Both the position numbers and the translations under genes were made by a program. Source: Chloroflexota bacterium (GTDB taxonomy: Bacteria; Chloroflexota; Anaerolineae; Anaerolineales; UBA4823). From it: a stretch of DNA of 64,000 bases. This document shows positions 46,326-64,000 of the stretch, one piece after another; position 1 is the stretch's first letter; every line of letters starts with the position of its first letter. The notes under the pieces are model-generated. The model ran no database searches. It was not told the DNA's origin and saw only the letters and a list, made by a program, of their open reading frames with translations. The stretch lies in NCBI GenBank assembly GCA_029782365.1, contig JAKOUW010000096.1:587432-651431 (forward strand). Reading direction: 5' to 3'.

Positions 46326-46616
46326 AGCATGCCTCCTTTGATGATCCACAACCTTGTGAGGTCGGAAAAGGCAGCCGTGCGCCGCCTTGTATCTGCATAT
46401 TATAGTCTCATTTCACCAAAATTGAAACACATTGACTTTGCTGTTGGCGAGCACCCATTGATGCGAGCAGATTCACCCCAAGATTCACCCCATTTGGGGG
46501 GGAGACTTTCCACCTGAATATCCGTTATTATACGATCATTCCAAAACATGAATTGCCATCGGGCTGAAGCTGGTTCAACGGATAAATGCCTGGTCAACGC
46601 TTCAAAGGAGACAAAA

Positions 46617-49745: not shown

Positions 49746-49841
49746 GATGTTCCCTTGCCGTGAAAATTCTGCAGCCTGAGACAGGCGTCAGTCGATACTG
49801 CGTGATATACTCGGATGAGGTATGTTGCGAATGGTGACGCC

Positions 49842-50465
49842 ATGTCGGTAAAACATTGGTTAATTTTTCTGGCAGTGCTGCTCGCCCTGGTCGCTTGCGC
49901 TCCACCTCCTCCATCTTCCACGGAAACCGACCTGCCCAGCGCCAACCCGGTGGAAGCTCACCCCACTGACACCGCCCGGCCGTTTTCCACTGCGCCGCCA
50001 GCCGGTCTGCCCCACCTGGCGGCGGCCGCTCGCCCCCCAAGACCCACTCCCTTTCAAGGTCCCATTCACCTGGCTGGCGAGATCATCGAGATCGACAACC
50101 AGCAAATTGCCCTGTACGGCGCAAAGTTGGACGGCGGTGATCTGACCGCCCATTTCATTATAAAAAATAATACGCAGAGCGAGCTGACCGTCAGCCAACT
50201 GATCAGTTTCAGCGCTCAAAACCCGGATGGCACCCTCCCGGTGACGGATATTGTCTCCTGTCCGGGTTTTGCCGCGCCCATCCCGCCTGGCGGGGTGGAA
50301 AAAGGCCAGGTGTGCTGGACCAGCTTCCAGGCTGACGGGCGAGTGTTCTACCGGGCGAATCTTTTCGAACAGCAGTTGATCGCCTGGCGCATCCCCTCTG
50401 CGATCCCCGAGATGGAAATCACCTTCCAGGGCGTCCATCTGCTCGCTCATTTCCAAGCGGATTGA
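49842..50465 (+). CDS. lipoprotein, DUF4352-like beta-sandwich
   Basis: MSVKHWLIFLAVLLALVAC lipobox, Pro/Ser/Thr linker, then the ...LTAHFIIKNNTQSELTVSQLISFSAQNPDG... pattern. Confidence 0.65.
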   Translation: MSVKHWLIFLAVLLALVACAPPPPSSTETDLPSANPVEAHPTDTARPFSTAPPAGLPHLAAAARPPRPTPFQGPIHLAGEIIEIDNQQIALYGAKLDGGDLTAHFIIKNNTQSELTVSQLISFSAQNPDGTLPVTDIVSCPGFAAPIPPGGVEKGQVCWTSFQADGRVFYRANLFEQQLIAWRIPSAIPEMEITFQGVHLLAHFQAD

Positions 50466-50627
50466 TGAATGAGATGAAGCGCCGAAAAAACAAAGTCAAC
50501 TGATTGCAGGCGCAGGAATGCCGATTTTCCAGGGCGCTCGCCGCAGAGGTTCGAACACATCTTCACGCGCCCTCGAGAAGGCTTTAGCAGTTTGTTTACC
50601 TTTTTCCAGGTCAGCCCGCCGGACCGC

Positions 50628-50656
50628 TTGCAATTGAATTTTTTAATCGCTATAAT
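50628..50656 (+). promoter_or_regulatory. near-consensus sigma70-type promoter TTGCAA-17-TATAAT
   Basis: Read directly: -35 at 50628-50633 and -10 at 50651-50656. It implies a leader of about 210 nt before ATG 50874. Confidence 0.55.
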
Positions 50657-50873
50657 TTAATCATCAATTGTAGATAAGACCCGGTCTGGCCTGCCGTTTA
50701 CAGGTAAGGACAAACAATTGGCAGACCAGCGGCGGATCATTCAGCTCTCCTTGATGGATTTTCACGAGCTGTGTTTCACCTGGCGGTTACAGCGCTCTGC
50801 GTGGTGGTTTCAGCGCGCACGCCGTCAGGAGATCTGGCCTGTTCATCAATTGAACGAAAAGAAAGGATTTGCA

Positions 50874-52277
50874 ATGGACAAGAGATATACCCAATTGATC
50901 TGGATTTTGTCGATCGGTATCGCCTTGTTTGCGCTCAGCGCTCTGCCCGCCCGCCAGGCGTTGGGCCAAGACAGCGCAGAGCCTGCCGCCCCTTCTGCCG
51001 CGCTTGGCGGCGTCGGCTTTTCCATGCCTGTCCAGGGCCGTCTGACGGATGCCAGCGGTTACCCGCTGGATGGACATTACGATCTCACTTTCCGCCTGTA
51101 CACCGGCTTAGCCGACCCGGCGGCGGTTTGCGAAGACACCAACACGAACGTGGATGTGGCCAACGGCCTGTTCAGCACCTACATCTGGGGCGACTGCGGC
51201 TCAGTGGTCACCGGTCAACAGCTTTACCTGGGCATCCAGGTGGGCGCAGATGCTGAAATGACGCCCCGCCTGCCGGTTTATCCGGTGCCTTACGCCGCCA
51301 GCCTGATGCCAGGGGCTGTGATCAGCAGTACGATCAGCGGCTTACCGGTTTTGCACCTGGAGAATTCCGCGCCCACCGGCCGCGGCCTGCGCGCCTACGC
51401 CACGGCCACCACCGGTGTTAATTATGCCGTGATCGGCGCCTCCAAATCTCCTTCCGGTTATGGCGGGTACTTTTACAACAACGGCGGTGGGATCGGCCTG
51501 TGGAGTTGGACGAACAGCTCCTCCAAACCGGCCATTTTCGGTTGTGTGAATGCCTCTTCCGGGGCTTGCGCCTCCGGCTCGAATCCGGCTGGCGTGTTGG
51601 GCAAGAGCAGCCTGGGCGACGGCGTGCAGGGCGTCACCAGCAGCAGCTCTTTCCGCGGCGTGTATGCTGAAAACACCGGCGGCATTGCTCTGGCCGCCTA
51701 CAGCTCCGCCGCTGACCCAACAAACCACACCCTCGCCACGCTGTACCTGATCCAAAGCAACAGCTCTGGCGATTATGTCGTCGGCGCCAGCTCGTACTTC
51801 GGCTCGCGCACCTGGCGCGTCGACCGCACCGGCAAAGGCTTCTTCAACGGCGGCACCCAGGCCAGCGGCGCTGATTTTGCCGAACAGATCGCCGTGCAAG
51901 GTGACGAGGGCGCGTATGAAGTGGGCGATGTCCTGGTGATCAGCGCCGCCGCCGACCGCATGGTTGAAAAATCCAATTCGGCCTTCTCCCGCGCCGTCAT
52001 CGGCGTGTACTCCAGCGACCCGGCTGTCTTGGCTGGCGCTCCAGACCAGGACAGCCCGCTTTCAGGTGTGCCTGTGGCGGTGGTGGGCATTGTGAAGTGC
52101 AAAGTATCCACTGAGAACGGCCCCATCCAGCGCGGCGACCTGCTGGTGACCGCCAGCCTGCCAGGATACGCCATGCGCTCCGGCGATAACCCGCCCCAGG
52201 GCACGGTGCTGGGCAAGGCCTTGCAGACACTCGACGCCGGCACAGGCCTCATTTTAATCCTTGTCGTTTTGCAGTGA
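50874..52277 (+). CDS. secreted tail-fibre-like protein
   Basis: ATG 50874 after AAAGGA. Signal peptide. VQGRLTDASGYPLDGHYDLTFRLY...VDVANGLFS is the N-terminal pattern common in proteins annotated 'tail fiber domain-containing'. Gly/Ser-rich central beta region. Confidence 0.6.
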   Translation: MDKRYTQLIWILSIGIALFALSALPARQALGQDSAEPAAPSAALGGVGFSMPVQGRLTDASGYPLDGHYDLTFRLYTGLADPAAVCEDTNTNVDVANGLFSTYIWGDCGSVVTGQQLYLGIQVGADAEMTPRLPVYPVPYAASLMPGAVISSTISGLPVLHLENSAPTGRGLRAYATATTGVNYAVIGASKSPSGYGGYFYNNGGGIGLWSWTNSSSKPAIFGCVNASSGACASGSNPAGVLGKSSLGDGVQGVTSSSSFRGVYAENTGGIALAAYSSAADPTNHTLATLYLIQSNSSGDYVVGASSYFGSRTWRVDRTGKGFFNGGTQASGADFAEQIAVQGDEGAYEVGDVLVISAAADRMVEKSNSAFSRAVIGVYSSDPAVLAGAPDQDSPLSGVPVAVVGIVKCKVSTENGPIQRGDLLVTASLPGYAMRSGDNPPQGTVLGKALQTLDAGTGLILILVVLQ

Positions 52278-52289
52278 ACGGAGGCTGGA

Positions 52290-52619
52290 ATGTTGCCTTC
52301 CATTCGTTTCCCAATGCTGCTGCTGCTGGCCTGTTTACTGCTTGGCTTCAGCTCTGCCGGCCGCCCGCCGGATCCAGCCGCCGCCAGTTTCGGCCCATCA
52401 GACGCTCAAATGGTTTCGCCAGGGTACCGCCTGGATTGGCTCACTCCCCTGGCTATCAACGCCGGCGGTTCGATCGTCTCACCCAGCTTCCGGCTGGATT
52501 ACAGCCTTGGCCAAGTCGCCGTCGACCGCGCCGCTTCGAACAGCCGCCGCGTTTTCCTGGGCTATTGGTCCAATTACGCCTATCTGTACCATCTCCTGCT
52601 GCCGCTGATCACGCATTGA
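52290..52619 (+). CDS. small secreted hypothetical protein
   Basis: 109 aa, signal peptide MLPSIRFPMLLLLACLLLGFSSA, 12 nt downstream of the tail-fibre-like gene. Confidence 0.5.
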   Translation: MLPSIRFPMLLLLACLLLGFSSAGRPPDPAAASFGPSDAQMVSPGYRLDWLTPLAINAGGSIVSPSFRLDYSLGQVAVDRAASNSRRVFLGYWSNYAYLYHLLLPLITH

Positions 52620-52668
52620 TCTGAAACGACAATTCGCTGCGCGGCTGGCGGGAACCGAAAATCTGCGG

Positions 52669-53274
52669 GTGGTGTATAGTGTATGCATGCACTTTGACGC
52701 CGAAAACCCGCACGAACAGGTCAGGTTAATCCAGGCAGCCCTGCAGAGCGATGAGACAGCCTGGGAAGCCCTGGTGCGCGCCCACCAGGAGCCCATCTTT
52801 CGCTTCGCTTATTTGTTGTTGGGCGACAGCGCCGAAGCGCAGGATGTCGCCCAGGAAGCATTTATCAAGGCTTTCAAGGCCCTGCGGCGCTTCGACACCA
52901 GCCGTCCCCTGCGCCCCTGGCTGTTGAGCATCGCCGCCAACCTGGCGCGCAACCGCCGGCGCTCGGCAGGGCGATTTTTGGCCGCTCTGCGCCGCTTTGC
53001 GGCCAATGAGCCGGGCCAAACGACCAGCGTTGAAGCCCTCAGCCTGGCGCAAATCCAGGCCCAGACGCTCTGGCTCGCCGTGCAGAAGTTGGATGAGCCG
53101 GACCGCCAGGTGATCTACCTGCGCTATTTCCTCGAGCTGCCCGTGGAGGAAACTGCCCAGGTGATTCAGGCGGCGGAAGGCACGGTCAAATCTCGCCTGC
53201 ACCGCGCCGTTCAGCGGCTGAAAGCCATCATCGAGCGCGACTTTCCAGGACTGCGTGCAGGATGGAACCAATGA
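52669..53274 (+). CDS. ECF-type RNA polymerase sigma-70 factor
   Basis: Region 2 (FRFAYLLLGDSAEAQDVAQEAFIKAF) and region 4 (DRQVIYLRYFLELPVEETAQVIQAAEGTVKSRLHRA). The start could be Met 52687. Confidence 0.9.
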   Translation: MVYSVCMHFDAENPHEQVRLIQAALQSDETAWEALVRAHQEPIFRFAYLLLGDSAEAQDVAQEAFIKAFKALRRFDTSRPLRPWLLSIAANLARNRRRSAGRFLAALRRFAANEPGQTTSVEALSLAQIQAQTLWLAVQKLDEPDRQVIYLRYFLELPVEETAQVIQAAEGTVKSRLHRAVQRLKAIIERDFPGLRAGWNQ

Positions 53275-54056
53275 ATCCAAATTTTGAAACCCCCGAAGAA
53301 AGCGGCTTTCTGGCCGCCGCCCAGGCCTTTCCGTACCCGCCCACGCCCGATGTGGCTCGCTTTGCCGCCCGCCGCATATTTCATCCGGCGCCTGCCCGCC
53401 GGCAGTTGGCGCGCCGCGCCGCCCTGGCCGCCGCCCTGGCGTTGGTCGGCCTTCTCTTTCTGCTGGCGGCCCCCGGCGTGCGTGCCCAGTTCGCCGAATG
53501 GATTCAGATCGGTGTGGTGCGCATTTTCCAACAGGCCGTACCCACCCCCGAAATTTCCGCTCCAACCCCATCTCTCGACCGCTCCCCGGCGCCCACGCAC
53601 ACTTACCTCATTTCCCTGCTCGACCTGGGCAGTGAGACCACCCTGGAAATCGCCCGCCGGAAGGCCGGCTTCCCTGTGCGCCTGCCCACCTACCCGGCAG
53701 ACCTGGAAAGCCCAGACAAGGTGTACTTGATGGATATGGATAAACCTTTCCTCATCCTGGTGTGGCTGGACCAGACGAATCCCACTGCTGTGCGTCTCAG
53801 CTTGCAGACTTTCCCCCCAGGCTCAATTGCCGCTGAAAAGTGGTCCCCTGTTTTGGTCGGCGAGACCAGCGTCCACGGCCAGTACGCCGCCTGGGTGATC
53901 GGCCCGTATCTCCTGCGTTTGAAAAATGGCGATTATGATTTCCGCCGTCTGGTGGACGGCAATGTCCTGGTCTGGCAGGAGGGCGACCTGACATACCGCC
54001 TGGAATCCAGCCTGAAGATGGATGAAGCTGTCAGGGTGGCCGAATCGCTCAAGTAA
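53271..54056 (+). CDS. anti-sigma factor-like membrane protein (single TM, DUF4367-like extracytoplasmic domain)
   Basis: ATG 53271 overlaps the sigma-factor stop (ATGA). TM AALAAALALVGLLFLLAAPGV. C-terminal beta-rich domain. Confidence 0.65.
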   Translation: MNPNFETPEESGFLAAAQAFPYPPTPDVARFAARRIFHPAPARRQLARRAALAAALALVGLLFLLAAPGVRAQFAEWIQIGVVRIFQQAVPTPEISAPTPSLDRSPAPTHTYLISLLDLGSETTLEIARRKAGFPVRLPTYPADLESPDKVYLMDMDKPFLILVWLDQTNPTAVRLSLQTFPPGSIAAEKWSPVLVGETSVHGQYAAWVIGPYLLRLKNGDYDFRRLVDGNVLVWQEGDLTYRLESSLKMDEAVRVAESLK

Positions 54057-54138
54057 TTGCGTCTGGCTGGAACCTTCATAAGGCCGGCGGTGTATACAGG
54101 ATGAAGATAACCAAATTTCTCTTGATAAGGAGCTGAAA

Positions 54139-55026
54139 ATGCAGCGCACAATGTTAAGAATTGGCTTATTGCTTGGCCTGGCCTGCCTCTTCCTGTCTGC
54201 CGCGGGAAGCGCCTCCGCCGGCGGCTGGGCGGTCATCACCCTGACGCACCTGCCCGATTACGCCGTGGCCGGTCAGCCGGCGGGTTTCGAATTTGTCATC
54301 CGCCAGCACGGCCGAACGCCCTGGGTGAGCGACATGGTTTTGGTGAAAGCCATCCGGGTCGGCTCCAGCGACGCCCTGACCGGCAAAGCCGAGAGCGTTT
54401 CCGGCACGCCTGGCACCTACCGTGTCCAAATCACTTTTCCAGCCGCCGGCCTGTGGCGCTGGAGCGTATCCAGCGGCCTGTACCCAGATTTCCAACCCAT
54501 GCCCGACCTGACAGTGGTCGCCGCGGCGGCTTCAACCGCTGGCGCCCCCTTGCCCAACCGCGCCGCTCTGCTGTCTGGAGCCGCCGGCCTGGCCGGAGCA
54601 CTGCTCTTCGCCGTCCTGCTGATCCTGCGCCGCAGCCGCGCTCGCCAGGCAGCAGCCCTTTCGCTGGTCTGCCTGGCGCTTGGGTTGGCTGGGTTCAGCC
54701 TGGCAGCCGACCCCGGGCAGCCAGCTCAATCGACTGCGGCTATCCCGGCTTACACGCCTGCACCGTTGAGCCAGGCGGCATTGGGCGAGCGCCTGTTCAT
54801 TGCCAAGGGCTGCATTGTCTGCCACTCCAAAACGGCCAGCGGCCTGCCGGTCAATGTCTCTTTGGACATGGGCCCAAACCTGACGAAGGTGGACAAAGAC
54901 GCCCAATATTTGAAATATTGGCTGGCCGACCCTTCTGAGCTGAAACCGGAAACGACCATGCCCAAGCTCGGTTTGAGCGGCGAAGAAATCCAGGCGTTGA
55001 TCGCCTTCTTGAAAGCCGGCAACTGA
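54139..55026 (+). CDS. membrane-associated protein with C-terminal monohaem cytochrome c domain
   Basis: Signal peptide, beta-sandwich-like N-domain, TM (AGLAGALLFAVLLIL), CIVCH haem motif and a distal TMPK Met ligand context. AAGGAG SD. Confidence 0.75.
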   Translation: MQRTMLRIGLLLGLACLFLSAAGSASAGGWAVITLTHLPDYAVAGQPAGFEFVIRQHGRTPWVSDMVLVKAIRVGSSDALTGKAESVSGTPGTYRVQITFPAAGLWRWSVSSGLYPDFQPMPDLTVVAAAASTAGAPLPNRAALLSGAAGLAGALLFAVLLILRRSRARQAAALSLVCLALGLAGFSLAADPGQPAQSTAAIPAYTPAPLSQAALGERLFIAKGCIVCHSKTASGLPVNVSLDMGPNLTKVDKDAQYLKYWLADPSELKPETTMPKLGLSGEEIQALIAFLKAGN

Positions 55027-55078
55027 CCAGACAGGCCTCGCCGGCAGTCTTTCGCCGGGCAGATCAATCAATTGGCAA

Positions 55079-55113
55079 AGCAGTCTCTATGCACCGGCAG
55101 AGGCTGCTTTTTT
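55079..55113 (+). terminator. rho-independent terminator
   Basis: AGCAGTCTCT (55079-55088), 10-nt loop, AGAGGCTGCT (55099-55108), followed by a T-run that begins with the stem's last T (6 consecutive Ts, 55108-55113). It lies 53 nt after the cytochrome c gene stop. Confidence 0.75.
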
Positions 55114-55178
55114 CAATGCTGGGAGCTTTCACCCTTCCTAGACCTCCATTTCATCCCTGGGAATATTTTCCCATCCGC

Positions 55179-55207
55179 TTGACTTTCGAATTTCTTTCCT
55201 ATACAAT
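55179..55207 (+). promoter_or_regulatory. sigma70-type promoter TTGACT-17-TACAAT for the S8-led operon
   Basis: Read directly in an AT-rich intergenic region, about 50 nt upstream of ATG 55260. Confidence 0.55.
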
Positions 55208-55259
55208 ATAATTCAGACAATTCGAATCTAATTTATCCTATTTAGCAAGCCAACACAGG

Positions 55260-56558
55260 ATGAAGTACCATTTTGTCCTAAAAATCCGTCAAAAATTAAA
55301 TAGCGATCTCCACATTCCCTACTGGGTCGATTTCATCACCGATAAGTCGGTGGTGATCCAAAACCTTAACCCCGAGGTCGATGCCCTGATGTCCTCCGCC
55401 GGCTTGCAGTTCTGGCTGACCCGCGAATATGCGCCGGCCAACGCCTCCTGGAGCGCCTCAGAAGTCCTGCACGGCCTCGACCGCACCTACCGGTTGGTTC
55501 TGCAGCAGGAGTACACCCTGCCAGATGACCTGCTCGACCGTCTTCTTCAGCTCCCATCCGTGGAAACAGCCTGCGAGCTGACCATCGGCGAGGCGCACAT
55601 TCCCCAGCGCGATCTGTCTGTGCAGACCTCTCTGCCCGGCAGCCGCCCCGCCGATCTGATCTACCTGGCCTTTGCCAAGGCGCTGACGCGCGGCAGCCCG
55701 CAGGTCAAGATCGCCGTGCTGGATACCGGCGTCAACCTCAGCCACCCAGAGCTGGCCGGCAGGCTCCTGCCCGGTGCAGATTTTGTTGACCTGGAAGGCA
55801 TGGATACTTCAGATTTCATTGGTGATTACCTGGGTTATGATGATGTGCCCGAAGATGAAGTCGGTCACGGCACGCATGTCTCAGGCATCATCGCCAGCCG
55901 CGGCCTGCAGATGGATGAAGGGGTAGCGCCTGACTGCCGCATCCTGCCGGTGCGCGTGCTCGCCACCATGCGCACCGGCGGCCGCCTGGTGGGCGCCGGG
56001 ATCATCGACAACATCAACGCCGGCATCAAGTGCGCGGTTGACTGGGGTGCCGACATCATCAACATGAGCCTGGGCATCAAACACACCGGCGGCGGCCTGC
56101 CCCACGAGGATGTCATCCGCTATGCGCTCAGCAAGAATGTGACCGTGGTGGCCGCCAGCGGTAATGACGGCTCCCCTGAGCGTTACTATCCAGGCGCACT
56201 GCCAGGCGTGATCGCCGTCGGCGCCGTGGATTATTCCGGCCAGGTGACAGCTTTTACTTCGTACGGCGCCAACATCACCGTGGTGGCTCCTGGCCTCAAC
56301 ATCTACAGTTCATTTGCTAACAACAGCTACGCCGTGGCCTCGGGCACTTCCCAGGCCTCTCCCTTCGTCGCCGGCTCAGTTGGGTTAATGAAAGCCTATG
56401 CGAAAAGCATGGGCGCTTCCCTCAGCAACCAGGATATTCTTTCTATCCTCAAAAACACCTCCGACCGGGTTGACAGCCGCCTGCGATCCGTGCACGCTGG
56501 CTACGGCTTACTCAACCTGGCGGATGCGTTCAAATTGTTATCCCACCAGTTCCAATAA
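55260..56558 (+). CDS. S8 subtilisin-family serine peptidase, no signal peptide, with ~130-aa N-terminal non-catalytic domain
   Basis: Catalytic motifs in canonical order: VAVLDTGV (Asp), GHGTHVSG (His), AASGNDG (oxyanion Asn), SGTSQASP (Ser). The N-terminus MKYHFVLKIRQKLNSDLH is not signal-like. Confidence 0.9.
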   Translation: MKYHFVLKIRQKLNSDLHIPYWVDFITDKSVVIQNLNPEVDALMSSAGLQFWLTREYAPANASWSASEVLHGLDRTYRLVLQQEYTLPDDLLDRLLQLPSVETACELTIGEAHIPQRDLSVQTSLPGSRPADLIYLAFAKALTRGSPQVKIAVLDTGVNLSHPELAGRLLPGADFVDLEGMDTSDFIGDYLGYDDVPEDEVGHGTHVSGIIASRGLQMDEGVAPDCRILPVRVLATMRTGGRLVGAGIIDNINAGIKCAVDWGADIINMSLGIKHTGGGLPHEDVIRYALSKNVTVVAASGNDGSPERYYPGALPGVIAVGAVDYSGQVTAFTSYGANITVVAPGLNIYSSFANNSYAVASGTSQASPFVAGSVGLMKAYAKSMGASLSNQDILSILKNTSDRVDSRLRSVHAGYGLLNLADAFKLLSHQFQ

Positions 56559-56570
56559 AAAGAGGCAGGT

Positions 56571-58622
56571 ATGACCAACATCAATAATTTCTCTTTTGAC
56601 AGCAGTTCGCCTTTCCGCATCAAGCGGCCGTTGATCACCACCAACGGTTTTGTCTCAGAGGTGGATCCCACCATCAAAACCCATCTGGACGAGCTGGATG
56701 CTTTGCTCGGCAAGCGCATTTTTAAACGCCGCTCTGCCCTGGAAGAAAGCGAATTCGAAGCCCCAGCCAAGGCGCACGAGGCATCCAACGCTGCCTCAGC
56801 CGCCGCTTCACGCCGCGGGCGGCCCGGCGTGGTCACCGATCCAGATATCCGCCAGGTGGTGCGTTTACCCCTGACGCCCAAGCAGATCCCCACCAGCAAT
56901 AACTGGGAGCGCGGCAGTTTGCTGTATTTCATCTCCGAAGCCCCTGAGGCTGTCGACAATCTCACCATCTCCGAGTACATCGACCTGGTGGCCGATCTCT
57001 CGGCGCTCAAATACGCGTTTGAGAGCAACCTGACAGATAACTGGTTCAACCTGGATTTCAACACCAAAACAGTGCTGGACGGCTACCCGGGAATCAAAGA
57101 TTACCTGCTGGTCTTCGCCTTCCATGTGATGGGACTGGAAGAAGTCAACGGCCTGAAGAATTTCGTGCTCAGCAACCGGCAAGGCGCCAGCGCCATCGCC
57201 AATTACGCCATCATCAGCGCCGCCCGCCAGGTGATCCATGAAGAACAGCTCCGTGTGCCCAGCTACAACAATGACAACAGCGAGATCGTGCATGAGATAC
57301 TGGCCGCCAATCTTTCCCTCTCGCAGGCCTCTTTCCGGCCGGATGTGCAAAATGTCCTCAACAATTTCATTTTCAACGGCGCCGAGGCGCGGCTGATCGA
57401 CAACGCCAACATCGGCCCGATTCCGCCGGCGCTCAAACCGCTCTTGATCAAATATATCAAGCGCTCTACCATTCCCATCACCGCCCACAACATCAATTTC
57501 TTCCTGCCCTTGTTCCTCTCACAGATCCAGGCTTCCACGGGGATTCTGCAGCCGCAAGATGACCTGACCATCGCTGAATCGGACAAGGATTTCGACGTCA
57601 CCTTCTTCGAGGATGACAATTCCTTGATTCAGGTCAGCGTCTCGGCCGTCAAATGCGCCGCCCAACTGTATTACAGCATGGTGCTGGGCGACAAGCTGGA
57701 TGTCTTCGGCGCGATGCGCTACTTCACTAACAAGTACCTGCTGCGCGGCGGCCTGGAAATCCAGGACAGCCGCCTGCGCCAGGATTTGCAAAATTATGTC
57801 TTCTCCAACCGCTTCACCGACAGCACCGGCAAGCTGGTGGACTGCACGCGTGAAAAAGAGCGCGAAATGTTCTACTGCCAGGTGTTCAATTACAGCTGCG
57901 GCCAGGTGACCGAAGACCTGATCGTGAACAAGGAATTCCCCCGCCTGTGGAAGGTGTTGATGCTCGAATCGGCCAGGTACCTGGAACGCGCTCAGGTAAG
58001 CCCCAACCCCGACAGTTTCGTCTCACGCCAGAATGTGATGCAGGCGGTGGAAGACCTGCAGTACAACCTGTCCACTCACTGCACCGGCATGGCCAATGTC
58101 ATCACCCCGATCATTTACGCTGAGCTGGATTTCATCATCCGGCGGATTTTCATGCACCCCGAAATCCTGCGTCAGGTCGTGCCGCAGGGCGGCACCTGGT
58201 GGCGGGTGGTGGAGACGCTCTACATGCAGATGAAGCACGTGCGCCCCAAATCGACCGTTTATTACAATGAAGGCAAGCTGGGTTTTGAAATCTTGCGCCA
58301 GATCGCCGATTACAACCCGGCCACCTTTGAGACCGACGCCAACTTCTCCGCCTTTATCAGCAGCGTGGATGCCTTCATCACCACCCAAAGCATCCTTCAG
58401 CAGGCCCTGACAGACCAGCTCAAGCAGGCGCAAGGGGATGACGAGGATGAAGGCGAGCCGGCCATGGCCGGCTCGCCCAGCCTGAAGCTGACCCCCGACA
58501 GCTATCCGGGCGGCGCCGGCTACACTGGCAGCGGTTACTCCGGCAATGGCAACGGCAACGGCCATCAGCCCGCCGCGGCCATGCCTTCCGCCAAACCCAC
58601 CACCGATGAATGGGATTTCTAG
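56571..58622 (+). CDS. hypothetical 683-aa protein, no recognisable family; C-terminal disordered Gly/Ser/Pro linker ending in acidic-aromatic tip DEWDF
   Basis: Long ORF with coding-like composition and an AGAGG SD, 12 nt after the S8 stop. No signal peptide, TM segment, P-loop or metal motifs seen. Confidence 0.8.
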   Translation: MTNINNFSFDSSSPFRIKRPLITTNGFVSEVDPTIKTHLDELDALLGKRIFKRRSALEESEFEAPAKAHEASNAASAAASRRGRPGVVTDPDIRQVVRLPLTPKQIPTSNNWERGSLLYFISEAPEAVDNLTISEYIDLVADLSALKYAFESNLTDNWFNLDFNTKTVLDGYPGIKDYLLVFAFHVMGLEEVNGLKNFVLSNRQGASAIANYAIISAARQVIHEEQLRVPSYNNDNSEIVHEILAANLSLSQASFRPDVQNVLNNFIFNGAEARLIDNANIGPIPPALKPLLIKYIKRSTIPITAHNINFFLPLFLSQIQASTGILQPQDDLTIAESDKDFDVTFFEDDNSLIQVSVSAVKCAAQLYYSMVLGDKLDVFGAMRYFTNKYLLRGGLEIQDSRLRQDLQNYVFSNRFTDSTGKLVDCTREKEREMFYCQVFNYSCGQVTEDLIVNKEFPRLWKVLMLESARYLERAQVSPNPDSFVSRQNVMQAVEDLQYNLSTHCTGMANVITPIIYAELDFIIRRIFMHPEILRQVVPQGGTWWRVVETLYMQMKHVRPKSTVYYNEGKLGFEILRQIADYNPATFETDANFSAFISSVDAFITTQSILQQALTDQLKQAQGDDEDEGEPAMAGSPSLKLTPDSYPGGAGYTGSGYSGNGNGNGHQPAAAMPSAKPTTDEWDF

Positions 58623-59680
58623 GAATATACAGGGTGATGCGAATGGTTGACAATCAAACAGTTATTCCCAATGATGCTCAAATGCTGGAGCGTGCGCGCG
58701 GCAACGTGCGCGGCGCCCTGGCCCAGAGCATGGCCTTCCAGAGTCTGCCCATCAATGACCAGAAGAGCATTTACCTCTCGTTAGTGCAGGAAGACCTGGC
58801 CAAACAGCGGGAGAGTTATGGCCTTTCCAGCCAGATGGCCACCGATTCCGGTGCAGATATGGGCTATAAAGGTTACAACCCGGCCTTCGGCGCAGACACC
58901 GCCAATTTCAAAGAGCTGGTCGACTCGGTCGATTTTCCCAAGTTCGTTGCGGATCTGTTGAAAGCGGTTTTTGACGCCAATCTGAAGGTGATGAAACAGC
59001 AGACCGATGCGTACATCAAGCTGATGAAAGAAGCCACCAAATCGGCGGCCGATTTCATCAAGCAGGTCAAAGACGAAGACGCCTTCGCCCGCCTGGCCGA
59101 ATCTCACTCCGACCAATACAACGTGCAGACCGAGAAGCAGGCCGATGGCAGCAACAAATTGGTGCTGACCAAGCCCGAAGGCGGCAAGCATGACCTCCAG
59201 GATGCCGAGGTGATGAAAGACCTGTTTGAAGCCAAGCTGAAAATGGCCCAGGAGCACCGCGCCGCCATTCGTGAGATGATTGTGATCGGCGTGAACCGCC
59301 TGGTGGTGGAAAGCGGCGTGATCGAAGCCGGTGTGGATTTCTCGGTGAAAGCCACCCGCAACAGCGCCGCCCACCACGAAGACCAGAACGTCAATGTCAC
59401 AACCGCCAGCATGTCCTACGATTCTCCTCTCGGCGGTATTTTCGGCGGGCCGTCGGGCAGCATCGAGACCACCAACACCAACATCCAGATCAACACGTCT
59501 GACAAGAAAACATCTGACGAGCAGACTGCTACACTGCACGGCAAGGTGAACATCAAATTCAAGACCGATTACTTCAAGCTGGACAATTTCCTGACAATGT
59601 ATTCCGATGGCGGTACAGCCGCGCTGAAGCCAGCCCAGCAGGGTCAGCAATCTCAACTTGGACCGGCGCGCCCGGGATGA
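58610..59680 (+). CDS. hypothetical ~345-356-aa protein: charged helical N-terminal two-thirds, beta-rich C-terminal module
   Basis: The ORF is open from ATG 58610, which would overlap the upstream stop by 13 nt. Alternative in-frame starts are ATG 58637 and ATG 58643. No recognisable family. Confidence 0.75.
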   Translation: MGFLGIYRVMRMVDNQTVIPNDAQMLERARGNVRGALAQSMAFQSLPINDQKSIYLSLVQEDLAKQRESYGLSSQMATDSGADMGYKGYNPAFGADTANFKELVDSVDFPKFVADLLKAVFDANLKVMKQQTDAYIKLMKEATKSAADFIKQVKDEDAFARLAESHSDQYNVQTEKQADGSNKLVLTKPEGGKHDLQDAEVMKDLFEAKLKMAQEHRAAIREMIVIGVNRLVVESGVIEAGVDFSVKATRNSAAHHEDQNVNVTTASMSYDSPLGGIFGGPSGSIETTNTNIQINTSDKKTSDEQTATLHGKVNIKFKTDYFKLDNFLTMYSDGGTAALKPAQQGQQSQLGPARPG

Positions 59681-59687
59681 CCACGGC

Positions 59688-62006
59688 ATGGCGCTGGCGC
59701 TGTTGGAATGGTTGGGAACGGAGCGCGGCCAGGCGCGTTTGCTGGTGGACACCGGCACCAACCCCTACTACCAGCTCAAAGTTGGCCGGACGGTGGACCA
59801 GCGCGGCGGTGTGGATTGGGTCGACCAGGTGTACTACACCAGTCCTCTGCGGCGCAACCCGGCCAGCGCCAACTTGTTCCACACCGCCAGCGAGATCGTC
59901 GTGCCTGTCCAAAAGTTCGCACAAGGCAGAGCTTATGTACAGTTATTCAGCTATAAAGACCAACAGGGCAAATCGCCCGCTTTCTCCGCAGTCCTCCTTC
60001 TGCCAGCCGCTGGGGGAATTCTGCCTGGGGGCGGCTATGCCGCCCCCTATTCCAGGCAGGCCTCGATGAACAGCGGTGCGCCATCCCCGGCGCCGGCATT
60101 TGAAGCGCCGCGCCGCATCCCCTGCCAGTTGGCCCGCGAAGCGTATTCGCAGGCCGCATCCTACGATGATGTGCTCTCCAGCCTGCTCAAACTGGCCGGA
60201 CCGGTGGTGGCCAGCCTGCTAAAAGGAAGTTCCGCGCCATCCCCTGCCGGTACAGCCCAGGCTCCTGGAGGTAAGCCGCCCGCCAGCGGCGCAGATTCGT
60301 CCAGCCTGCTGGCCATTCTGCTGCAAGCCCTGCTTGGTTCATCCGCTGGCGCCGCCCCGTTGAGCGCCCTGGGCTTGTCGATGTCGGCGGAAGCCTATCC
60401 GGCGCGCAGCCCAAGCAGACTGCTCGACCCTCACCTGCAGGCCAACCGCTTTGCCGGTGAGCCGCAGGCCTATTCCCGTCCCTTCGTCGCTTTCATCGAT
60501 GACATCGCAGAGCTGGCCCCGCTTCTCGGCCCTTTGATGCAGATCATCCCGCAGGTGGTTGGACCAGTCGCCCAGGTTCTGCCAGGCATCATTCACGAGG
60601 AAGGCGTGGCGGGCAACGACACGCTCAGGCTGGTCAATGAAGCCAACCACCGCCGGGTGGAGCTGAAAGATGCCGACAACAAACTGATCTCCAACCTGCT
60701 CTCCGACGCCAGCCGCCGCCTGCTGATCAACGGTTTACAGCAGGCTGGCACCGACCAGGCGGGCGGAACGCTCAACCCCGACCAGGTCATGGCGCTGTTG
60801 AAAATGCTTCAGCAATTCGCGCCGGCGGCCAATCCAACGCCCGCCCCTGCTCCCGGAGGGAATGCCGCGCCGCCGCCGGACTCAGCTTCGGCTCCCACTG
60901 CTCCCAGGCCGCCTGCCGCGCCCCAGCCGCCTGCCCCGCCTGCCGCTCCCCAGGCGCCGGTCAAAGCGCAGTCCCTCAGCGCCGCACCCACAGCCATCCC
61001 CAGCGGCCGCGCCGTGCTAAATTTCGTGACAGCCCCGCCGCAAACCTGGAACGGCGCGCCGCAAGTTCTGTTCGCTAAAAACCAGGCCGTCAGCCTGCGC
61101 CTGCGCCTGGACGTGGCGCCCCCTGCCCCCAGCCGCCCTCTGCCCAAGGCCATCATCCATGTGTGCTTTAAAGACTGCGCCAAACAGGTGATCCTGGCGG
61201 AAAAAACCTTTAAGCAGAAAAACGTGCCAGCCAACGCCGAACTGCGCTTCTCTTTCAGCGCCGAAGAGCTGATGCACCTGCCCGCCAATCAAGGCCTGAC
61301 CATCTTCGCCTCCTTGCGCTGGCTCAGCCCGGCCTCAGGCCTGGAGCACAAGGCGCTCGGTTCGCTGGAGGCGGTATTCGTCGAGCAGTACTACCTCAAA
61401 GAGCAGGGCCAGGCACTGTCTGTCGAGCAAGAGCTGAAAGACATGCAGCGTTTCCGCCCGTTCTGGAACAAAGTCTGGGAATCGCCCTCGCTGGACAGCC
61501 TCAACCGCCAGCGCGGTGAAGACAAAAAATACCTGTGGGAGCTGGATGCCAGCGCCCGCTACACCATCCTGCTCTCGGCCGAACACACCTCGAACGGCTT
61601 GATGGAAACCAAACTGCTCGCCGACCCGCCCGGCCCTGAGGCGATCACGGTGCGCACCGCTGGACGCCTGAAAGCCGGCATCGAGCTCAGCCTGGATGAG
61701 CTGAACAAGCTCATCCCGCTGTGGGCCGGCCAGCCTGCCCTGGACTCAGTCCATTTGCAGGCTTTCAAAACCTGCGAATTCGCCCGCAGCCACGCCTGCG
61801 AATTCACCGCGCGTTTGAAGCTCAAAGGCAGCGCCGCCAACCAGGGCAGGGTGTTTGTGATTCCAGTGTTCAAACTGGTGGAGTTCACGCTGGCCTCGCC
61901 CGATAAGCTGGACGAAAACGGGCAGGTCCTGTCCGCCAAAGAAGAAAAAACCTACTTTCCCCTGCCGGTCGCGGCTCGCCTGATCGGCTTGAAATCCACC
62001 ACCTGA
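59688..62006 (+). CDS. hypothetical 772-aa protein: N-terminal beta-rich domain, long Ala/Pro/Ser disordered regions, C-terminal ~330-aa globular region
   Basis: ATG 59688 lies 7 nt after the upstream stop; the track begins at TTG 59658. Pro/Ala tract at about 60820-60970. No family recognised. Confidence 0.75.
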   Translation: MALALLEWLGTERGQARLLVDTGTNPYYQLKVGRTVDQRGGVDWVDQVYYTSPLRRNPASANLFHTASEIVVPVQKFAQGRAYVQLFSYKDQQGKSPAFSAVLLLPAAGGILPGGGYAAPYSRQASMNSGAPSPAPAFEAPRRIPCQLAREAYSQAASYDDVLSSLLKLAGPVVASLLKGSSAPSPAGTAQAPGGKPPASGADSSSLLAILLQALLGSSAGAAPLSALGLSMSAEAYPARSPSRLLDPHLQANRFAGEPQAYSRPFVAFIDDIAELAPLLGPLMQIIPQVVGPVAQVLPGIIHEEGVAGNDTLRLVNEANHRRVELKDADNKLISNLLSDASRRLLINGLQQAGTDQAGGTLNPDQVMALLKMLQQFAPAANPTPAPAPGGNAAPPPDSASAPTAPRPPAAPQPPAPPAAPQAPVKAQSLSAAPTAIPSGRAVLNFVTAPPQTWNGAPQVLFAKNQAVSLRLRLDVAPPAPSRPLPKAIIHVCFKDCAKQVILAEKTFKQKNVPANAELRFSFSAEELMHLPANQGLTIFASLRWLSPASGLEHKALGSLEAVFVEQYYLKEQGQALSVEQELKDMQRFRPFWNKVWESPSLDSLNRQRGEDKKYLWELDASARYTILLSAEHTSNGLMETKLLADPPGPEAITVRTAGRLKAGIELSLDELNKLIPLWAGQPALDSVHLQAFKTCEFARSHACEFTARLKLKGSAANQGRVFVIPVFKLVEFTLASPDKLDENGQVLSAKEEKTYFPLPVAARLIGLKSTT

Positions 62007-62019
62007 CCAGGAGGATAAG

Positions 62020-62172
62020 ATGATCCCCTCACCTTCTGCTGATAACCAGGACTCCCCAGACACCGGCCTGGCGGCTGAAAACGATGAACCCGAATACACC
62101 TTCGATGGCTACCAGGTGGAATTCTCGCAAAAGATCATGCTGACCCCGGCCGATCCCAAAAAGAGCGCCTGA
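62020..62172 (+). CDS. small acidic protein (50 aa), hypothetical
   Basis: My own translation: MIPSPSADNQDSPDTGLAAENDEPEYTFDGYQVEFSQKIMLTPADPKKSA*. AGGAGGA SD 5 nt upstream. Its stop codon shares one base with the next start (TGATG). Too short for the supplied track. Confidence 0.55.
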   Translation: MIPSPSADNQDSPDTGLAAENDEPEYTFDGYQVEFSQKIMLTPADPKKSA

Positions 62173-62441
62173 TGGACGAAGCCTTTTTGCCATTCCACCA
62201 GATGGTCGCCAGCCTGCTGGACTTCGCCGGCGACATCCACGATGAAGATGCTGGCGTGCATATGTATATTGCCGAATGCGAGATCGAAGCGCCGCTGGAG
62301 CTGGATGTGTTGACCGGCGAGCAGGGCGGCCTGCAGATCGGCTCGGTCCCGCCATTGTATTCCGTGGACACCACCTTCCGCCCTTCCTATCACAGGCTGC
62401 GCTTCACGGCTGAGCGCACCGAGGTGAGCCATGGCCAATGA
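62172..62441 (+). CDS. hypothetical 89-aa protein with trypco2/DUF2589-like beta-module (pattern-level)
   Basis: The ATG shares one base with the upstream stop. It is overlapped by the next gene by 11 nt. Contains ...VHMYIAECEIEAPLELDVLTGEQGGLQIG...YHRLRFTAE. Confidence 0.6.
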   Translation: MDEAFLPFHQMVASLLDFAGDIHDEDAGVHMYIAECEIEAPLELDVLTGEQGGLQIGSVPPLYSVDTTFRPSYHRLRFTAERTEVSHGQ

Positions 62442-63183
62442 GAACACTCCCTGGCAGTTGGAAGATTTCGTCGATTCGCTGGTGGTGGAGCTGGACAAGA
62501 CTCGCGACACCCTGGCGGTCAAAGCCATCAACAAGCCGCTGAGTTACACCGTCAAGGAAGTGGCGCTCGATCTGAACATCTTCCCCTCCTACGACGGCGA
62601 CAAGGTGAAATTCATCACCGCCCAGCCGGGCCAGGAAGGCGCCTCGAAAGTGACCATCCAGCTCGGCTCGATCACCGACCAGCAGGTGCGCGCCACCACC
62701 AAACTGCCCGCTGTCAAAAACGATGTCAGCCTGGCTGAGATCGGGCTGGACAAGACCACCCAGAAAAAGCTCGAGAAGATCGGCGTGAACTCGTTGGGCG
62801 ACCTGAAGCAGGTCGAACAGAAAAATGTGGATCTAAAGAAAGTCTCGGATAACGACATTGACTATACGAAGCTGGCGAATCAAATTCAGAAATCGCGCCG
62901 TGACCAGGCGCCGCCCCGCCTGCGCGAGATCAGTTTTTCGCTCAGCGATCAGGGCGCGCCGCAGTTGGTGATTCAGGGTGACAACCTGGCAGTCAACCCC
63001 AAGTTCCCACCGGTGGCGGTGCTCAACAACCAGCTCGCCGAAGTGCTCTCCAGCGATGAAAATGTGATGCTCATTCAGATCGGACCCCAGCACACCCTGG
63101 CCGAGGATAACGAGCTGATCCTGACCTTCGACCCGTATGCCATTCTCAAGGTGAATTTACACAACCGGAAAGCAGAACGATGA
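62431..63183 (+). CDS. hypothetical 250-aa protein: N-terminal trypco2-like module, helix-hairpin-helix-like motif, IPT/TIG-like beta domain
   Basis: WQLEDFVDSLVVELDKTRDTL + LSYTVKEVALDLNIF...KVKFITAQPGQEGASKVTIQLGSI. Then LAEIGLDKTTQKKLEKIGVNSLGDLKQV. Then ISFSLSDQGAPQLVIQGDNLAVNPKFPPVAVLNNQLAEVLSSDENVMLIQIG. Confidence 0.7.
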   Translation: MANENTPWQLEDFVDSLVVELDKTRDTLAVKAINKPLSYTVKEVALDLNIFPSYDGDKVKFITAQPGQEGASKVTIQLGSITDQQVRATTKLPAVKNDVSLAEIGLDKTTQKKLEKIGVNSLGDLKQVEQKNVDLKKVSDNDIDYTKLANQIQKSRRDQAPPRLREISFSLSDQGAPQLVIQGDNLAVNPKFPPVAVLNNQLAEVLSSDENVMLIQIGPQHTLAEDNELILTFDPYAILKVNLHNRKAER

Positions 63184-64000
63184 AACCACAAATACCGAAC
63201 TCTTTTGATGAATTGATGCGTTCTCGGTACGGTCACTTCAGCGCGGCTGAGGAAGCCGAAGCGCGCGACCTGAACGCTTTGTTGGGCCGTTATTACGGCG
63301 AAGCGCCGCGTCGCAAAAAGAAAAAGAAACCCTCCACCCCAGCCCAGAGCCTGAGCTGTGATGACGGTGAAATGCTCCCCCAGGCCGCCAGCCGCAGGAA
63401 CGACCTGGCCGCCCAATATTCATTGGGTGGCGGCCTGGACGAGGAGTATGTGCTGGGAACGCTGTGCGAAAGCCAGCCCGGCCGCGCCGACCTGCCGGCC
63501 GCCGGCCAGCCGCCGGCCTACACCGCACCCTCCACTCCAACCCAGCCCGCCCCGCCCCTGGCGGCTGCCAGCCAGAGCATGTCGCAGGTGGCGCCTGCCA
63601 GCCCGCAGGATGAATACAACCTGGACGTGCGCCAGCCGCTGTCCACGCCTTCCGCTGTGTACACCTCACCTCCAGCCGCCCGCCCGACCAATCCCCAGCC
63701 GGCCATCAGCCAGGCGCAGGTGAGCGAGGATGACTTCGTCAACGACATGAAAGCCATCCTGTCCGGAAAAAAATTGTACGATCAGGCCCAGGGCAGCGCT
63801 GGCGCCACCTCCGAAGGCGGCCAGGGCGCCGCCAGCCGGGCGCAGTCTACCCCTGGCGCAGATCCCAACAGCGGCCAGGCCATCTTCGACCGCATCGCCC
63901 AGAGCATGCAGTATGCCAACGCCTACGACATGGGCACGGTGGAGCTCAACAACCGCTTCGCCGATTTCGACCGTGCCTATGAGGAACAGCAAAAGGCGCG
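63180..64000 (+). CDS. hypothetical protein, N-terminal >273 aa (continues beyond right edge): poly-Lys patch, Pro/Ala-rich region, conserved-looking helical motif
   Basis: My own translation from ATG 63180 (ATGA overlap with the upstream stop): MKPQIPNSFDELMRSRYGHF...PRRKKKKKPSTP...(P/A/Q-rich)...DDFVNDMKAILSGKKLYD...GQAIFDRIAQSMQYANAYDMGTVELNNRFADFDRAYEEQQKA. No stop before the window end. Confidence 0.7.
   Translation, partial: MKPQIPNSFDELMRSRYGHFSAAEEAEARDLNALLGRYYGEAPRRKKKKKPSTPAQSLSCDDGEMLPQAASRRNDLAAQYSLGGGLDEEYVLGTLCESQPGRADLPAAGQPPAYTAPSTPTQPAPPLAAASQSMSQVAPASPQDEYNLDVRQPLSTPSAVYTSPPAARPTNPQPAISQAQVSEDDFVNDMKAILSGKKLYDQAQGSAGATSEGGQGAASRAQSTPGADPNSGQAIFDRIAQSMQYANAYDMGTVELNNRFADFDRAYEEQQKA

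Follow-up and report, generated by a model that had tools for sequence, protein, structure and literature searches.

The window analysed here, a stretch of 64,000 nucleotides from a Chloroflexota bacterium (contig JAKOUW010000096.1, positions 587,432 to 651,431 of the forward strand), closes with a cassette of genes headed by a subtilase, a serine protease of peptidase family S8. This cassette looks like a machine for regulated cell lysis or killing. Tentatively, we interpret it as a self-contained, transcriptionally licensed module of protease-triggered cell lysis (autolysis). The interpretation is supported by strict synteny from the S8 gene to gene 9 over seven phyla with unrelated flanks. 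It also agrees with the pairing of constant N-terminal modules with swappable envelope-hydrolase domains in the products of genes 8 and 9, and with distant operons that repeat the combination of S8, three to four gene 3 paralogs, gene 7 and an Amidase_2, Amidase_3, Muramidase or C70 enzyme. In the window, the listing and translation of open reading frames (ORFs) gave eight + strand ORFs in tight series, with product lengths in amino acids (aa):

Gene 1: 55260-56558, + strand, 432 aa, subtilase (S8)
Gene 2: 56571-58622, + strand, 683 aa
Gene 3: 58643-59680, + strand, 345 aa; the start at 58643 is favoured by homolog alignments
Gene 4: 59688-62006, + strand, 772 aa; the ATG at 59688 is favoured by homologs
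Gene 5: 62020-62172, + strand, 50 aa
Gene 6: 62172-62441, + strand, 89 aa
Gene 7: 62431-63183, + strand, 250 aa
Gene 8: 63180-64000, + strand, first 273 codons only, running past the window edge

Alternative starts of gene 3 lie at 58637 (gene caller, 347 aa) and 58610 (ORF 58610-59680). The gene 4 ORF opens at 59658, and its upstream TTG is less favoured by homologs than the ATG. The first four gene junctions are gaps of 12, 14-20, 7 and 13 nucleotides, and the last three are overlaps of 1 base (TGATG), 11 nucleotides and 4 nucleotides (ATGA). In relatives, the full operon consists of nine genes and ends about 4.5-5 kb past the position of the window edge. The window carries the N-terminal part of gene 8; the C-terminal domain of gene 8 and the whole of gene 9 are known here from relatives only. 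A first-pass annotation of this DNA, made from the sequence alone, had described at least eight same-strand genes separated by tiny gaps or overlaps. The ORF listing reproduced all eight, and the relatives raise the number to nine. The same annotation had treated them as a single unit led by a cytoplasmic S8 protease; the unit is indeed conserved, co-directional and tightly coupled.

Scanning one genome per species gave 35 loci. The hosts are soil bacteria, both monoderm and diderm, from Acidobacteriota, Alpha- and Betaproteobacteria, Planctomycetota (Brocadia), Chloroflexota, Actinomycetota (Streptomyces, Nocardioides, Actinoplanes, Couchioplanes, Mycobacterium, Agromyces, Microbacterium and others), Gemmatimonadota and Bacteroidota (Chitinophaga), and the cassette has one layout in both envelope types. 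Conservation of the gene order had been proposed as a check on the first-pass annotation. It turned out that the order is identical, with no rearrangement, in every locus long enough to tell (about 30 genomes from at least seven phyla; BLAST of all ORFs). In relatives, the S8 protease is followed by products of about 660, 345, 710, 55, 89, 247 and 750 aa, and the last product has about 600-950 aa. Across all loci, identity to the window proteins is 56-73% for gene 3, 52-70% for gene 7, 54-69% for S8, 35-59% for gene 2 and 28-44% for gene 4. The genes flanking the cassette are unrelated between genomes, and its sporadic distribution fits horizontal transfer. In three metagenome-assembled genomes (MAGs; L025, L028 and L037), several cassette genes are broken into 2-4 ORFs. 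These are either pseudogenised cassettes or long-read frameshift errors.

Judging from its sequence, the product of gene 1 is an intact, cytoplasmic protease, and its activity is predicted. It matches the Pfam family PF00082 with E = 1e-46 (159.9 bits against a cutoff of 21.8). The catalytic residues are D155, H203 and S364, with N268 as the oxyanion Asn. All 33 orthologs keep the triad motifs (DTG, HGTH, GTS) intact, and 28 of them have the NMSLG-type Asn motif. A check for hydrophobic segments showed no hydrophobic N-terminus, signal peptide, transmembrane (TM) helix or anchor, so the earlier description of an intact S8 subtilase lacking a signal peptide was correct. Residues 1-140 form a conserved extension resembling a propeptide. 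The mycosin model TIGR03921 scores 181.1 bits, under its equivalog cutoff of 278.75, and the NCBIfam models CspBA and CspC are matched weakly (51 bits against a cutoff of 1250 and 35 against 675, respectively). The best PHROG match is the phage protease family phrog_3677 (E = 5e-61). Among PADLOC models, only the generic 'subtilase' model matches gene 1.

Genes 8 and 9 encode modular proteins that appear to attack the cell envelope. The N-terminal half of the gene 8 product is disordered and carries conserved short motifs (EDDFxxDM..ILxG and AIFDRIAQSMxYANAYDxGTVELxNRFADFDR in the module alignment). Attached to this constant module is a C-terminal domain that varies among relatives. About three quarters of the loci share a 430-aa domain of unassigned type with the motif DHFLTDAFAxGH, and the other loci have DUF4056, Peptidase_M15_4, a trypsin-like domain or another unassigned domain. 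The majority domain was considered as a Zn-dependent phospholipase C / P1 nuclease on account of its motif; neither Pfam nor the PDB supported this assignment, which is a lead at most. DUF4056 is a CapCone-type Lipocone domain and shares its clade with TelC, a toxin that is a lipid II phosphatase; the domains of the CapCone/TelC clade are tied to lipid carriers and peptidoglycan (bioRxiv 10.1101/2025.01.14.632903). Gene 8 also occurs as the N-terminal module alone, in L045 (16322-17365, 347 aa) and in metagenome proteins P0396-P0410 (140-280 aa). A profile of the module retrieved just 15 such short stand-alone modules. Thus, the constant module can exist without an effector domain.

The gene 9 product (about 600-950 aa) usually has a central T4-type lysozyme domain (PF00959). 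Its constant N-terminal domain of about 320 aa contains invariant ..ILTHG.. and ..VYMMNC.. motifs with a hydrophobic strand before each. This His-Gly...Cys pattern resembles clan CD (caspase-like) peptidases, with no sequence match in Pfam or the PDB. The catalytic motif E-X8-D-X5-T of glycoside hydrolase family 24 (GH24) is intact in about nine loci (for example in L001, where PF00959 scores 131.9 bits and the motif is EGFRATMYNDPVGHCT). Eight actinobacterial copies (L017, L020, L023, L025-L027, L030 and L031) have an internal deletion in the lysozyme domain: the Asp and Thr of the motif are gone, and the beginning of the domain and its C-terminal two thirds remain. The domain is missing from gene 9 of L009, L035, L036 and L038. 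The C-terminal part is likewise variable and can be Peptidase_C70, Glucosaminidase, M15_4 or a shared domain of 225 aa that opens with a Gly/Ala-rich hydrophobic helix. All the recognisable effector domains of genes 8 and 9 target peptidoglycan or its lipid carrier, that is, substrates outside the cytoplasmic membrane. The gene 8 and gene 9 proteins that were scanned showed no wall-binding domains (LysM, SH3, PG_binding), and no immunity-like gene is conserved downstream of the cassette among the loci. Because the families have no signal peptides, convincing TM helices or NTPase, the gene 8 and gene 9 enzymes can get to their substrate only through a breach in the membrane. The first-pass annotation had called the partners of the protease non-enzymatic. 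This is only in part right: in relatives, genes 8 and 9 encode enzymes, and the N-terminal domain of gene 9 has the invariant His-Gly...Cys pattern.

We searched all eight window products against Pfam, NCBIfam, PADLOC (PADLOC-DB v2) and PHROGs, and genes 2-8 gave no match in any of these profile searches. No NTPase family was found among the cassette products in the Pfam, NCBIfam and PADLOC searches. Searches of PDB sequences with single sequences and family profiles of genes 2, 3, 4 and 7 and of the main domains of genes 8 and 9 gave nothing credible. None of the nine families has a signal peptide or a convincing TM helix. In these respects the first-pass annotation, which had left all products except S8 without a family and had seen neither signal peptides nor convincing TM segments in the partners, was borne out. 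Two of its structural impressions did not survive. A recurring small beta-module was not detectable when the nine family profiles were compared all against all with hhalign; this comparison revealed no common domain, and the lone match, between gene 7 and gene 8, is an artefact of a fused ORF in L025. The helix-hairpin-helix-like element gave sub-threshold Pfam matches alone (E = 0.15-0.16).

For gene 2, the search for homologs gave 356 clusters at 50-66% identity, all without a name. Its AlphaFold model is all-helical (mean pLDDT, the predicted confidence score, of 76; 280 residues at 90 or above), with a disordered N-terminal tail, two disordered loops and a disordered C-terminal tail. The flexible tails are conserved, and the closing E-W-D-F varies little or not at all (W681 and F683 are invariant). 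The model had no match with E < 0.01 in the PDB or in the viral database BFVD, and TM-scores did not exceed 0.18. Gene 3 has 892 homolog clusters at 90% identity, also without names, and a mean column identity of 76%. A profile search of 1.84 billion representative proteins gave 807 matches with E <= 1e-3 (50% clustering level); none of the 10 looked up had an informative name, and none of the 10 scanned had a Pfam family. The protein consists of an N-terminal helical hairpin, an invariant loop A-T-D-S-G..M-G-Y-K-G-Y predicted to be disordered, long helices and a Ser/Thr/Asn-rich beta region. Its AlphaFold model (pLDDT 64) shows the N-terminal helical hairpin, long helices and long beta-hairpins. 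This low-confidence model has no significant fold match in the PDB (none with E < 0.01, TM-score 0.18 or lower), and the top Foldseek match, a phage tail chain, is not significant (E = 0.02, TM-score 0.13).

Gene 4 has a syntenic ortholog in every locus long enough to contain one. Its product begins with a small domain, has linkers rich in Pro/Ala and ends in a conserved domain of about 300 aa. The gene 5 product is acidic and has the motif P-E-Y-x-F-x-G-[FY]-x-V-[ED]-F-S-x-K-[IV]-x-L-T-P (13 orthologs aligned); in the remaining loci it is too short or divergent for detection by BLAST. In a Pyrinomonadaceae MAG (L006, 15210-16193), gene 5 is lengthened to 327 aa by an extra C-terminal domain with the motif ..GMRESSGQYCMGRD.. 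and no Pfam match. This domain may be an additional inserted effector. Gene 6 encodes a small, conserved protein (31 orthologs aligned) that is also found in the divergent variants described below. The gene 7 product has a very conserved N-terminal domain, a helix-hairpin-helix-like stretch and a C-terminal beta domain, with a mean column identity of 65% (30 sequences). S8, gene 3 and gene 7 are among the most deeply conserved genes across variants. A supposed likeness of the gene 7 N-terminal domain to Trypco2 gave no Pfam or NCBIfam match at E <= 1 and is not claimed. A common S8 cleavage motif, [LM][AI]T[TD], in the linkers of genes 2, 3 and 9 was dropped as uninformative because the same tetrapeptide also lies inside structured helices.

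Divergent members of the gene 3 family occur in other S8-led operons. The cyanobacterial version contains S8, genes 2, 3, 4, 6 and 7, a gene-8-like protein and extra proteins, one of which has a faint RicinB lectin match. It is also found on a 190-kb plasmid of Tolypothrix sp. PCC 7712 (L047; NZ_CP063787.1, 137197-147368), with a peptidoglycan-binding-domain protein after S8 and an IS701 transposase directly 3' of the variant; the effector genes of this copy may be cut off. The same locus is present on plasmids of PCC 7601 and NIES-3275. Another layout, which we call type II (L041-L044 and L048), consists of a peptidoglycan hydrolase, gene-3-like, gene-6-like and gene-7-like genes, S8, a gene-2-like gene and 2-3 further gene 3 paralogs. 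Type II operons thus have 3-4 gene 3 paralogs (in tandem), and their gene-6-like and gene-7-like genes lie upstream of S8. The type II hydrolases are Amidase_2, Amidase_3, Muramidase with C70, and a 1254-aa amidase. In RefSeq, the Prokaryotic Genome Annotation Pipeline (PGAP) labels all non-protease, non-hydrolase genes of the variant operons 'hypothetical protein'. The cyanobacterial and type II variants together define a deep core of S8, gene 3 (often multicopy), gene 7 and at least one wall hydrolase.

Expression of the cassette is apparently under dedicated control. In 11 actinobacterial loci, the gene directly upstream is of the LuxR/GerE type. Six other canonical loci have a gene for a sigma-54 enhancer-binding protein 0.15-1.4 kb upstream, and in three loci a Crp-like gene is upstream. 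The sigma-54 activator is also sometimes found upstream of type II operons. Apart from these regulators, BLAST clustering of the cassette flanks in other genomes gave no conserved flanking family. Such upstream regulators fit a dangerous function that is off by default. A DUF3467-like small gene (94-135 aa) is located between the sigma-54 activator and the operon in L019 (8381-8665), L038 (8383-8697), L007 (7849-8235) and L048 (1388-1795), and may be a tenth, clade-specific component or a regulator.

In the proposed mechanism, all nine products would be made as soluble cytoplasmic proteins, and S8 would probably be restrained by its own N-terminal propeptide-like extension. A trigger would release S8, which would then cleave its partners at conserved exposed loops or tails; the candidate sites are the invariant gene 3 loop ATDSG..MGYKGY and the gene 2 tails. 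The gene 3 family protein would oligomerise and breach the cytoplasmic membrane, with genes 2, 4, 5, 6 and 7 serving as scaffold or regulators. Through the breach, gene 8 would reach the wall with its constant N-terminal tether and a variable domain (Lipocone/TelC-clade, M15 peptidase, trypsin-like or other). Gene 9 would do so with its His/Cys N-terminal domain, its T4-type lysozyme, glucosaminidase or C70 peptidase and the C-terminal domain with the Gly/Ala-rich hydrophobic helix. The effectors would destroy the wall, and the purpose may be abortive infection or altruistic release. We infer the cleavage targets, the pore formation by gene 3 and the lytic outcome. Lysis from within is the simplest model because it uses an intact cytoplasmic protease, soluble partners, the lack of an energy source or export route and effectors that act outside, all at once. 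It also accounts for the identical layout in monoderms and diderms, for apparently tight regulation and for a conserved core with probably many contacts. Occurrence in both monoderms and diderms fits an action from inside across the one membrane common to both. The first-pass annotation had suggested a protease-gated conflict or defence system; the modular effectors, the absence of an NTPase and the upstream regulators make a protease-gated conflict or lysis function more concrete. In clostridia, Csp subtilases activate the cortex hydrolase pro-SleC. Further precedents are Pepco and EACC1, pore formers that are licensed by a protease, and other zymogen effectors (bioRxiv 10.1101/2025.11.14.688446).

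Several observations weigh against protease-triggered lysis. The amphipathic beta-hairpin pattern looked for in gene 3 is imperfect, and the inferred pore role has behind it a model with pLDDT 64 and no fold match. The cassette contains no holin-like protein. Six conserved proteins exceed the needs of a simple lysis switch, and the core conservation (about 56-73% for gene 3 and about 52-70% for gene 7) suits a multi-contact assembly better than an immune sensor. The lysozyme is degenerate in the actinobacterial copies and missing in four loci. No sigma-54 -24/-12 element was found upstream of the operon in the loci with an adjacent enhancer-binding protein. Defence islands, which had been named as a setting to look for, were absent: none of the nine neighbourhoods with Pfam-labelled flanks (these were not run through PADLOC) is like a defence island or a prophage, and their genes are metabolic, regulatory or transport genes.

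The main alternative, somewhat less probable, is an inter-bacterial weapon. Genes 2-7 and S8 as a maturation protease would build a soluble carrier or particle, loaded through the N-terminal modules with the gene 8 and gene 9 toxins. The particle, probably released by lysis of a subpopulation, would kill neighbours, which is a bacteriocin- or Tc-toxin-like strategy with new parts. Polymorphic toxins characteristically join a constant N-terminal module to a variable toxin domain at the C-terminus, the disordered tether of gene 8 with its short conserved motifs resembles cargo-loading regions, and the conserved flexible tails of gene 2 with the invariant C-terminal EWDF are as expected for lattice or docking contacts. 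The polymorphism, the gene 8 tether and the gene 2 tails are explained better by a weapon than by lysis from within. The very high conservation of genes 3 and 7 would fit a multi-contact structural assembly. A producer would not need the immunity gene that is lacking downstream, the toxin targets being outside its cytoplasm, and cyanobacterial variants add the peptidoglycan-binding protein and the protein with the faint RicinB match. However, no capsid, tube, sheath or shell fold was recognised, the scanned gene 8 and gene 9 proteins lack wall-binding domains, and no particle has so far been observed. There is also no obvious route for large enzymes through the outer membrane of a diderm target, yet the cassette is the same in diderms and monoderms.

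Non-lethal wall remodelling during differentiation (hyphal or filament fragmentation, cyst- or spore-like transitions, local wall opening), in which S8 would activate hydrolase zymogens, seems improbable to us. The link between S8 and a peptidoglycan hydrolase is consistent across all variants, filamentous or developmentally complex taxa are enriched among the hosts (Streptomyces, Actinoplanes, Couchioplanes, Chloroflexia, Tolypothrix, Leptolyngbyaceae), the regulators upstream are of developmental type (LuxR, sigma-54 enhancer-binding protein, Crp), and gene 1 has its weak NCBIfam similarity to CspBA and CspC. Nevertheless, a sporadic, transfer-like distribution with unrelated flanks is atypical for a core developmental function, effector domains are typically swapped in conflict systems, the enzymes lack an export route, and many hosts are unicellular. 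Less likely still, indeed very unlikely, is a domesticated or defective virus-like element with a capsid-like shell, a maturation protease and a lysin but no packaging genes. The lysozyme domain is of phage type (PF00959), the best PHROG match of S8 is phrog_3677, and the layout of gene 3 (an N-terminal helical part, the conserved loop, then the body) bears a loose likeness to that of a capsid protein whose delta domain can be cleaved off. Against such an origin, gene 3 had no tblastn match in 50,697 phage genomes and was not found in a pattern scan of IMG/VR, genes 2-8 are without PHROG matches, and no viral fold matches the model of gene 2. Neither terminase, portal, integrase nor tRNA genes lie near the cassette in the neighbourhoods examined, and identity of about 60-70% across phyla is unlike viral structural proteins.

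We compared the cassette with known systems. The S8 protease of the Csp-SleC cascade, a subtilase that retains its prodomain, cleaves and activates a peptidoglycan-lytic zymogen. Gene 1 resembles it in the weak matches to the CspBA and CspC models (NF040809 and NF040808), which are far under cutoff; unlike this cascade, the cassette has no spore context, its hosts belong to seven phyla, and seven further proteins have no counterpart. In phage lysis and type 10 secretion, a cytoplasmic GH24 muramidase must cross the membrane to act. The cassette shares with these systems the GH24 motif E-X8-D/C-X5-T, intact in about nine loci, and multi-domain lysins resembling modular actinophage LysA. In contrast to them, it has no holin, spanin or TM protein, its lysin is fused to large unassigned domains, and it includes a protease and 5-6 extra conserved proteins. 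With no TM protein, no prophage genes in the flanks and gene 3 absent from the phage collections searched, it does not correspond to a holin-endolysin system.

LXG toxins of the type VII secretion system (T7SS), such as TelC, have a constant N-terminal trafficking module, a swappable toxin and small helper proteins, and the ESX-type T7SS includes an S8 protease, mycosin. Similar features here are the N-terminal module with a swappable toxin, DUF4056 from the Lipocone clade of TelC, and small companions (genes 5 and 6). Unlike T7SS, the cassette has no EccC/EssC ATPase, membrane components, immunity genes or LXG/WXG100 matches. The S8 protease also differs from mycosin in its score under the cutoff and the lack of a signal peptide or anchor, and no ATPase or Ecc family was found in the operon or in relatives. 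Closest in logic are the protease-effector immunity modules, whose effectors include gasdermin, Pepco, EACC1, metallo-beta-lactamase (MBL) and alpha/beta-hydrolase zymogens (Evans et al., bioRxiv 10.1101/2025.11.14.688446). As here, a protease gene stands beside latent effectors, which in those modules are unleashed by site-specific cleavage; in some of the modules the protease is subtilisin-like, actinobacteria and cyanobacteria carry such modules frequently, and the outcome is membrane or cell destruction. Whereas those modules have two genes and a protease fused to a sensor (STAND, DRT, Hachiman and others), the cassette has nine genes, a stand-alone S8 and no sensor NTPase. Its effectors are large wall hydrolases, in contrast to small pore formers or nucleases.

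The first-pass annotation had seen no resemblance to gasdermin, extracellular contractile injection systems (eCIS), the type VI secretion system (T6SS), encapsulin or the cyclic-oligonucleotide-based anti-phage signalling system (CBASS), and none of these appeared among the Pfam and PADLOC models matched. Genes 2-8 had no Pfam or PADLOC match at E <= 1, and the low-confidence gene 3 model had no gasdermin match in the PDB. No sheath, tube, baseplate, spike or ATPase of eCIS, T6SS or tailocins was matched in Pfam, PHROG or NCBIfam or in the Pfam lists of relatives. An encapsulin shell was matched neither in Pfam nor, for the gene 2 and gene 3 models, as a PDB fold, and PADLOC-DB v2 gave nothing convincing for genes 2-8 among known anti-phage systems. 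By the tests applied, the cassette is not a T7SS, a gasdermin, a contractile injection system, an encapsulin, a known defence system or a phage lysis system. What is familiar in it is only generic parts (S8 and lysin domains) and the general logic of a protease beside latent effectors.

No description of the cassette was found in the literature searched; publication beyond that literature is possible. We consider the chances about even that it represents a new kind of machine without ATPases or membrane proteins, built from at least six families without known relatives and including at least one new fold. Triggered or matured by a subtilase, such a machine would deliver swappable envelope-degrading enzymes across its own or a neighbour's membrane; it would have spread horizontally over at least seven phyla and would have divergent type II relatives. 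The homologs form hundreds of clusters (892 for gene 3); all source names retrieved read 'hypothetical protein', and none has a Pfam, NCBIfam, PADLOC or PHROG family, yet the core retains 55-70% identity from Actinomycetota to Acidobacteriota. Together, this shows that something real is missing from what is catalogued of bacterial cell biology and conflict systems. If the cassette is a lysis or killing machine, it would be a new means by which large folded enzymes pass a membrane with no need for ATP, holins or a secretion system. A new protease-licensed effector family would come with it, as would a set of modular lysins that could be useful as enzybiotics. The system is directly testable: the cassette measures 13 kb and offers one catalytic serine for mutation. 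Culturable hosts include Chitinophaga ginsengisoli DSM 18107, Caballeronia arationis, Couchioplanes caeruleus, Nocardioides zhouii and Tolypothrix PCC 7601/7712.

Two further elements lie between the cassette and the genes upstream of it in the window:

55077-55113, + strand: rho-independent terminator-like hairpin with a U-run (by fold energy; scanner flag at 55096-55108)
55179-55207, + strand: sigma-70-like promoter candidate TTGACT-17-TACAAT (10 of 12 matches, top site in the region)

Bases 55072-55118 fold with -18.9 kcal/mol (z = -3.4 against shuffles; 1 of 200 shuffles equal), and the U-run is 3' of the hairpin. This terminator, already recognised in the first-pass annotation as closing the upstream unit, ends a gene with a cytochrome-c domain (54139-55026). 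The promoter proposed there is present and is the best site. However, promoter-like sites are not enriched (four found against 2.7 expected from shuffles), so the site at 55179-55207 is a plausible, unproven candidate. A second promoter-like site, TTGACA-17-AATGAT (58647-58675, + strand, 10 of 12 matches), lies at the junction of genes 2 and 3; it could give a separate transcript for gene 3 onward or be due to chance. Scans of the whole window for tRNA genes and Rfam families gave nothing.

The terminator separates the cassette from a group of + strand genes at 52669-55026. These encode an ECF (extracytoplasmic function)-type sigma factor (52669-53274; Sigma70_r2 and r4), an overlapping 264-aa ORF that has no Pfam match and is a possible anti-sigma factor, and, directly before the terminator, a 295-aa protein, in which the cytochrome c domain is C-terminal. 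Farther upstream, at 46548-52624 on the + strand, four co-directional ORFs of 1065, 216, 519 and 116 aa with no Pfam match at E <= 0.001 look like another uncharacterised gene block.

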